Source of the DNA: Escherichia coli
Lineage (GTDB): Bacteria; Pseudomonadota; Gammaproteobacteria; Enterobacterales; Enterobacteriaceae
Length of the DNA stretch: 64,000 nt
Assembly (NCBI RefSeq): GCF_002854065.1
Contig: NZ_CP024147.1
Direction: 5' to 3' (one strand)
Positions 59,014-59,033 of the stretch are shown one piece after another. Each line of letters opens with the position of its first letter. Within the stretch, counting starts at the first letter, position 1. The position numbers were made by a program, and so were the translations under genes. Below the pieces are notes generated by a model, which ran no database searches, was not told where the DNA came from, and saw nothing but the letters and a program-made list of their open reading frames with translations.

Positions 59014-59033
59014 CACTGGATAGATAACCAGCA
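59014..59033 (+). promoter_or_regulatory. LexA (SOS) box upstream of cho (CACTGGATAGATAACCAGCA)
   Basis: CTG-N10-CAG motif read directly, about 15 bp before the cho GTG start. Confidence 0.6.

Follow-up and report, generated by a model that had tools for sequence, protein, structure and literature searches.

The sequence upstream of cho at 59014-59033 of the DNA analyzed here (a window of 64,000 nucleotides) is the already described LexA operator of this gene. In our reading, SOS control of cho operates by a block of its promoter, and the overlap between cho and the convergent gene ves is a by-product of their close packing. This reading very probably explains the locus as a whole.

The stretch 58800-60650 of the window is found at 95% identity or better in 5424 of 5426 complete E. 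coli genomes, and one RefSeq record is 100% identical, with the gene order nadE, cho, ves, spy, astE. By these matches, the window is E. coli chromosome. The features discussed below are collected in Table 1. The initial annotation of this DNA had described cho as encoding a UvrC-like nuclease, and profile searches confirm it. Cho matches the NCBIfam equivalog NF007833 with 579.5 bits (cut-off 367), and its residues 26-203 match positions 3-178 of UvrC (TIGR00194, E 2.5e-24), which is the N-terminal nuclease half. A Pfam search of Cho gave no domain at E 0.001 or better. Ves matches NCBIfam NF008488 with 427.9 bits (cut-off 292) and Pfam HutD (PF05962) with E 5.6e-44 and 150.9 bits (cut-off 25). 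A literature search on ves returned only unrelated matches (Babesia and other).

Table 1. Features of the cho region and of the ydjM operators, in window coordinates
Feature	Position	Strand	Basis
ydjM tandem LexA boxes, CACTGTATAAAAATCCTATA (12.9 bits) and TACTGTACGTATCGACAGTT (15.5 bits)	45893-45930		directly upstream of ydjM ORF 45933-46535
nadE	57990-58817	+	RefSeq annotation
CCGCCTCTTTTTT, likely U-tract end of a putative nadE terminator	58982-58994	+	conserved across genera, alignment A1
Putative extended -10 promoter of cho (TG 59009-59010, 1 nt, TACACT hexamer 59012-59017)	59009-59017	+	conservation
LexA operator (SOS box) of cho, CACTGGATAGATAACCAGCA	59014-59033	.	published box, matrix scan, conservation
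Shine-Dalgarno GGAG	59037-59040	+	6 nt before cho GTG; conserved in alignment A1
cho (ydjQ), excinuclease Cho, 295 aa, GTG start	59047-59934	+	ORF, RefSeq, NCBIfam NF007833
RNA 3' end, 24 nt inside cho, flagged Rho-dependent (Rho score 3.5)	59071	+	Term-seq, Adams et al. 2021
Rho termination region in cho, peak position (Rho score 3.87, significance 2.5e-7)	59316	+	Adams et al. 2021
cho/ves coding overlap, 41 bp	59894-59934	.	codons for Cho 283-295 and Ves 179-191, each with its stop
ves (ydjR), HutD-family protein, 191 aa	59894-60469	-	RefSeq, NCBIfam NF008488, Pfam HutD
Untranslated cho-sense RNA past the cho stop	60000-60500	+	C-rich, G-poor stretches, C/G 1.4-2.1
Two-way terminator hairpin, spy/ves, AAGACCGGCGGTCTT, T-run 60656-60661	60593-60661	.	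terminator scans and Term-seq
spy	60672-61157	-	RefSeq annotation

The LexA operator of cho

The presence of a CTG-N10-CAG LexA motif before the GTG start of cho, noted in the initial annotation, was correct in its coordinates. Within CACTGGATAGATAACCAGCA, CTG occupies 59016-59018 and CAG 59029-59031, separated by ten bases, and the box ends 13 bp before the GTG at 59047. It fits the 20-bp imperfect palindrome type TACTG(TA)5CAGTA, in which CTG and CAG lie 10 bp apart, and it is letter for letter the box listed as 'cho' in Table 4 of Thomassen et al. 2010 (PMC3009722). The regulation of the gene is likewise on record. A 2019 SOS review lists cho (ydjQ) under 'known SOS box', citing Fernandez de Henestrosa 2000 and Courcelle 2001, and the tiling-array study (PMC3009722) places cho among the UV-induced genes. 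According to a 2026 preprint, UV raises cho expression 2.4-fold in exponential phase and 36.6-fold in stationary phase. Nalidixic acid induces the Salmonella orthologue, ydjQ, whose box has a heterology index of 6.69.

The bare CTG-N10-CAG pattern is not above chance in the window, with 20 occurrences against an expectation of 12.0 ± 3.5; among 100 shuffled sequences, 4 contain at least as many. This count was dropped as an uninformative test, and a matrix scan, which the initial annotation had proposed as a check, was used instead. The matrix (20 columns, symmetrised) was built from 17 of the 18 boxes in Table 4 of PMC3009722, the cho box being left out. With it, the cho box scores 19.28 bits and ranks first among the approximately 64,000 positions of the window, whereas only 0.011 sites with such a score are expected per 64 kb from the exact score distribution. 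Since this value falls among those of the training sites (ruvA 18.9, uvrD 18.4 and lexA 20.7 bits), the operator is one of middling strength. Ranks two and three are taken by 45911-45930 (15.45 bits) and 45893-45912 (12.87 bits), both located before ydjM. Because ydjM is a known SOS gene, its boxes serve as an internal positive control of the scan. One of the two ydjM boxes has no right-arm CAG. The fourth-best match, GACTGGTGATAAATAAAGCA at 61392-61411 between spy and astE, scores 11.3 bits; its right-arm CAG is missing, and its score is at chance level (1.2 expected per window).

The operator is retained throughout the relatives examined. A scan for the Cho protein with one genome per species gave 80 loci, from Escherichia, Salmonella, Citrobacter, Enterobacter, Klebsiella, Kosakonia, Cedecea, Buttiauxella and other genera. 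The operator comparison comprised the 79 loci with upstream DNA and the E. coli reference locus, 80 in total. The CTG-N10-CAG box is present in all 80, at 11-16 bp (mostly 12-13) before the start codon, which is itself GTG in nearly all loci. Operator scores range from 13 to 25 bits; the CTG and CAG arms are fixed, and the inner bases are variable. The invariant columns in alignment A1 are G71, T73, A74, A76, C77, T78, G79, C90, A91 and G92. Within the species, 5402 of the 5426 complete E. coli genomes hold the 46 bases 59005-59050, a segment that takes in the promoter, the operator and the ribosome site; in 4932 of these 5402, its identity is 99% or higher.

Some of the loci deserve a comment on their origin. 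Locus L045, titled Chryseobacterium sp. 18061, carries the enterobacterial block osmE-nadE-cho-ves-spy-astE with approximately 75% protein identity to E. coli, and its assembly is probably mislabelled or contaminated. The 'Citrobacter sp.' metagenome-assembled genome HRGM_Genome_0066 has two cho loci, L002 (98% identity to E. coli) and L062 (78%), which suggests a mixed bin.

The predicted cho promoter and its relation to the operator

A simple promoter scan found no canonical -35/-10 pair near cho, and we therefore inferred the promoter from conservation instead. The motif TG-n-TA(C/T)ACT is at least 90% conserved among the 76 distinct upstream sequences of the 80 loci. The TG and TA of this extended -10 element lie outside the 20-bp LexA box, while the rest of the element overlaps the left arm. 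Transcription of cho would then start near 59024, in the middle of the operator. Given this overlap of operator and extended -10 element, LexA is expected to exclude RNA polymerase directly. Occlusion of this promoter by LexA is the probable mechanism, with the start site as its predicted component.

We propose the following sequence of events. A LexA dimer at 59014-59033 would cover the -10 hexamer of this sigma-70 promoter and the predicted start, so that RNA polymerase is blocked and cho stays off. Upon DNA damage, RecA-stimulated self-cleavage of LexA would free the promoter. The cho mRNA would then be translated from its weak GTG start, yielding Cho as a substitute for UvrC in the 3' incision of UvrAB-dependent repair. 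Moolenaar et al. are said to have found in 2002 that Cho can replace UvrC for 3' incision in UvrAB-dependent excision repair. Transcription of cho would end by Rho, partly inside cho and partly in the C-rich RNA antisense to ves; alternatively, the transcript may end at the hairpin shared by spy and ves. The conserved extended -10 element overlapping the operator, together with the conserved GTG, suggests that cho output is kept low at several levels.

Another promoter has been predicted in this spacer. Genomic SELEX with the RpoD holoenzyme placed TTGTCA-15-TTTAAT (58971-58997) between nadE and cho, and from this promoter the LexA box would lie at about +9 to +28. LexA would then act as a roadblock downstream of the promoter rather than by covering a -10 hexamer. 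We consider this unlikely. The TTGTCA of this promoter is confined to Escherichia, its spacer is only 15 bp, and the T-run used by its TTTAAT is part of a conserved terminator-like tail; the TG-n-TAYACT element, by contrast, is conserved in all genera. Occlusion of the extended -10 promoter is therefore preferred here.

The tail in question, CCGCCTCTTTTTT, is probably the end of the nadE terminator, judging from its counterpart in Leclercia and Phytobacter, which directly follows a GGCGGC...GCCGCC hairpin 3' of nadE. Such a terminator would likely isolate cho from read-through arriving from upstream. The nadE-cho spacer folds far better than shuffled sequences (z -5.17) and is highly structured at 58857-58939. 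Rfam ES036 (CssrF) matches 58897-58939 with 42.9 bits (gathering score 37.6), and a naRNA4/REP-like match, which is weak, lies on the minus strand at 58857-58893.

The cho/ves overlap and the ends of the transcripts

The initial annotation had also described convergent cho and ves genes whose 3' ends overlap by about 40 bp. This holds, the overlap being exactly 41 bp and annotated as such in RefSeq. Its length differs among relatives. In Escherichia and most Citrobacter it measures 41 bp, and Leclercia, Enterobacter, Kosakonia and Phytobacter have overlaps of 32, 23, 15, 7 or 4 bp. In Franconibacter, Enterobacter sp. ENT03, Pseudescherichia and relatives, the genes are instead separated by gaps of 3, 28, 46 and 48 bp. 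An apparent overlap of 73 bp in locus L035 was rejected as an artefact of extension past the stop codon, the true value being approximately 7 bp. The conserved cores of the proteins end in ...EI(T/I)EL (Cho) and ...WLPGH (Ves), and the overlap consists mostly of the variable tails beyond them; in Escherichia and Citrobacter, these are SPDQVQ on Ves and approximately nine extra residues on Cho. The gaps of 28-48 bp (L052 at 3377-3425, L054, L065 and L047) hold a strong GC-rich palindrome, for example GCCCGCCTGCCGT...ACGGCAGGCGAGC, with no U-tract. The palindrome may have arisen as a REP-like insertion, or it may form a hairpin that stabilises RNA in both directions.

The presence of ves beside cho is also variable. 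Convergent, abutting cho and ves genes that leave no room for a terminator occur in approximately 60 of the 80 species. In at least ten genera-level loci, ves is not next to cho and the operator is kept. In Salmonella, C. sedlakii, Intestinirhabdus, Pluralibacter, Klebsiella and Raoultella, ves is missing between cho and spy, with no change to the LexA box. In such genera, the counterpart of the spy hairpin lies directly after the cho stop or within a few bases of it (L006, L009, L017, L064, L067 and L069). In three further loci, L072, L075 and L079 (Enterobacter sp. Ag1, Cedecea davisae and Enterobacter sp. Cy-643), ves keeps its opposite orientation but lies approximately 1.7-1.8 kb downstream of cho, which indicates an insertion of other DNA between them. 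A selected antisense device would be expected to have a conserved arrangement, and the 80 loci do not show one. The length of the overlap is variable and ves is missing in several genera, a degree of variation not expected of a device dependent on the overlap. From this comparison, the overlap is best read as a by-product of two directly adjoining genes whose stop codons have drifted, rather than as a regulatory device.

Since the stop codon of cho lies inside ves, an mRNA that covers the complete cho frame necessarily runs antisense to the final 41 nt of the ves coding frame. How far cho transcription extends beyond this point depends on where it terminates. Between 59934 and approximately 60540, no convincing intrinsic terminator was found on the plus strand, either with a consensus scan or with a looser scan for a hairpin followed by a U-tract. 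Only after all of ves does a good plus-strand terminator appear, AAGACCGGCGGTCTT with TTTTTT behind it (60638-60661). The spy terminator hairpin (ACCGCCG...CGGCGGT), of which it is a part, carries a U-tract on either strand and may halt transcripts coming from both sides; Term-seq places the minus-strand 3' end of spy at 60592 (Adams et al. 2021). Without an intrinsic terminator, only Rho would keep cho read-through from traversing all of ves together with its promoter. The composition of the untranslated RNA past the cho stop suits Rho, as C-rich, G-poor RNA favours its loading.

Signs of Rho activity are found within cho itself. Adams et al. 2021 combined Term-seq with bicyclomycin treatment of uninduced MG1655 grown in LB (supplementary files 1, 2 and 3); their coordinates, and those of Huang et al. 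2020 below, were moved to the window by sequence matching. Both Rho signals in cho listed in Table 1 come from these data, which are based on few reads (71/32 versus 63/110) from uninduced cells and describe partial, factor-dependent termination. The signals inside cho are undiscussed by these authors, and among their 3' ends from uninduced cells, neither the primary nor the antisense class includes one for cho or ves. The fold of 59020-59110, around the 3' end at 59071, is no better than that of shuffled sequences (z 0.36), and a hairpin sequestering the Shine-Dalgarno sequence in the 5' region of cho was dropped. Weak intrinsic terminators at 59142-59157 and 59214-59229 within cho, and at 59373-59356 and 60289-60273 on the minus strand, were not accepted, as the set to which they belong is at chance level (5 found, 3.1 expected). 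A terminator within cho ahead of the overlap, which the initial annotation had named as evidence against antisense transcription into ves, is thus provided in part by the Rho-dependent signals of uninduced cells (59071 and 59316), with no intrinsic terminator accepted. The Rho signals and the conserved GTG together hint that, in addition to LexA, Rho-dependent polarity may limit the output of Cho.

Complementary RNA from the two genes has been captured. Huang et al. 2020 used p19 to capture products of RNase III, which appear as perfectly paired duplexes of 21-22 nt with reads from both strands. One such duplex, at 59705-59727, lies inside cho and at least 167 nt past the ves stop; two others, at 60034-60056 and 60321-60344, lie inside ves, approximately 100-410 nt past the cho stop. 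The duplexes flank the 41-bp overlap on both sides, so that complementary RNAs appear to reach far past it in both directions, even in uninduced cells, and the latter two duplexes show that some plus-strand RNA exists past the cho stop. Their levels at cho/ves are 1-11 reads per million, compared with the approximately 23 needed for a 'cluster', and 87% of genes give at least 1. Overlapping transcripts are also frequent among convergent operons of E. coli, 276 of 370 (75%) overlapping at their 3' ends by 286 nt on average (Conway et al. 2014). Overlap of the transcripts at cho/ves is therefore the norm and not a peculiarity.

These data bear on the possibility that the convergent overlap is a selected, excludon-like switch, in which SOS-induced read-through from cho reduces the expression of ves, either because polymerases collide or because RNase III cleaves the sense/antisense duplex. 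The lack of an intrinsic terminator up to 60638-60661, the duplexes from both strands in cho and ves, the abutting arrangement in approximately three quarters of the species sampled and the strong inducibility of cho all speak for it. However, the unstable length of the overlap, the GC-rich palindrome between the genes in some species, and the six taxa that lack ves and keep the operator argue against such a switch. Rho termination inside cho and the C-rich untranslated RNA after it would limit read-through, the duplexes are at a level most genes reach, and the convergent operons of Conway et al. 2014 overlap at their transcript ends with no known function. We therefore regard a selected switch as very unlikely. 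The proposal in the initial annotation that SOS-induced cho transcription runs antisense into ves is true by construction for a full-length cho mRNA, but the interference it implied is unsupported, given the Rho signals inside cho, the variable overlap and the genera without ves.

A literature search returned no published link between SOS and ves and no strand-specific SOS data on cho/ves. Antisense signals in the UV tiling-array study were discarded by its authors as artefacts (PMC3009722), and cho and ves are missing from its supplements and from those of SMRT-Cappable-seq. A more specific version of the switch starts from the approximately 700 nt after cho that lack an intrinsic terminator: under strong SOS, such as the 36.6-fold induction of stationary phase, cho read-through escaping Rho would run across ves with its promoter and silence ves through collision of polymerases or RNase III cleavage, as a damage-triggered, Rho-gated antisense switch of the Escherichia-Citrobacter-Enterobacter lineage; we give it only a slim chance. 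If true, it would add one more case of control by convergent transcription. The by-product reading remains preferred.

Comparison with known systems

There is practically no chance that CTG-N10-CAG before cho is a fortuitous match to which LexA does not bind: the abundance of the minimal pattern in the window proves nothing alone, whereas the full 20-mer is rare at its score, keeps its distance from the start codon in every locus and equals the published box. Compared with the cho (ydjQ) SOS box of the LexA regulon, the site has the identical 20-mer, position and gene, with no difference. The operator is thus a textbook member of the SOS regulon, and the cho/ves overlap is present in every RefSeq annotation; both are already known. 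Our analysis adds the conserved extended -10 element overlapping the operator, the conservation of the operator across 79 enterobacterial loci, and the placement inside cho of Rho-dependent termination that was published but not discussed. It also adds the evolutionary lability of the cho/ves overlap, which argues against a dedicated antisense function.

The ydjM operators belong to the same regulon, are found with the same matrix and likewise lie just upstream of a start codon; in contrast to the single box at cho, two adjacent boxes are present at ydjM. The convergent units of Conway et al. 2014, such as ilvA/ilvY, resemble cho/ves in having no efficient terminator between the genes and complementary 3' ends, and the low-level RNase III duplexes are a further likeness. 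Unlike in these units, the coding sequences of cho and ves themselves overlap, leaving no room for any terminator between them, and cho is damage-inducible. In the excludon of Listeria (PMC7154746), a long transcript is antisense to the neighbouring gene, as a long cho transcript would be to ves. However, expression of both cho and ves is weak, and their overlap lacks conservation.
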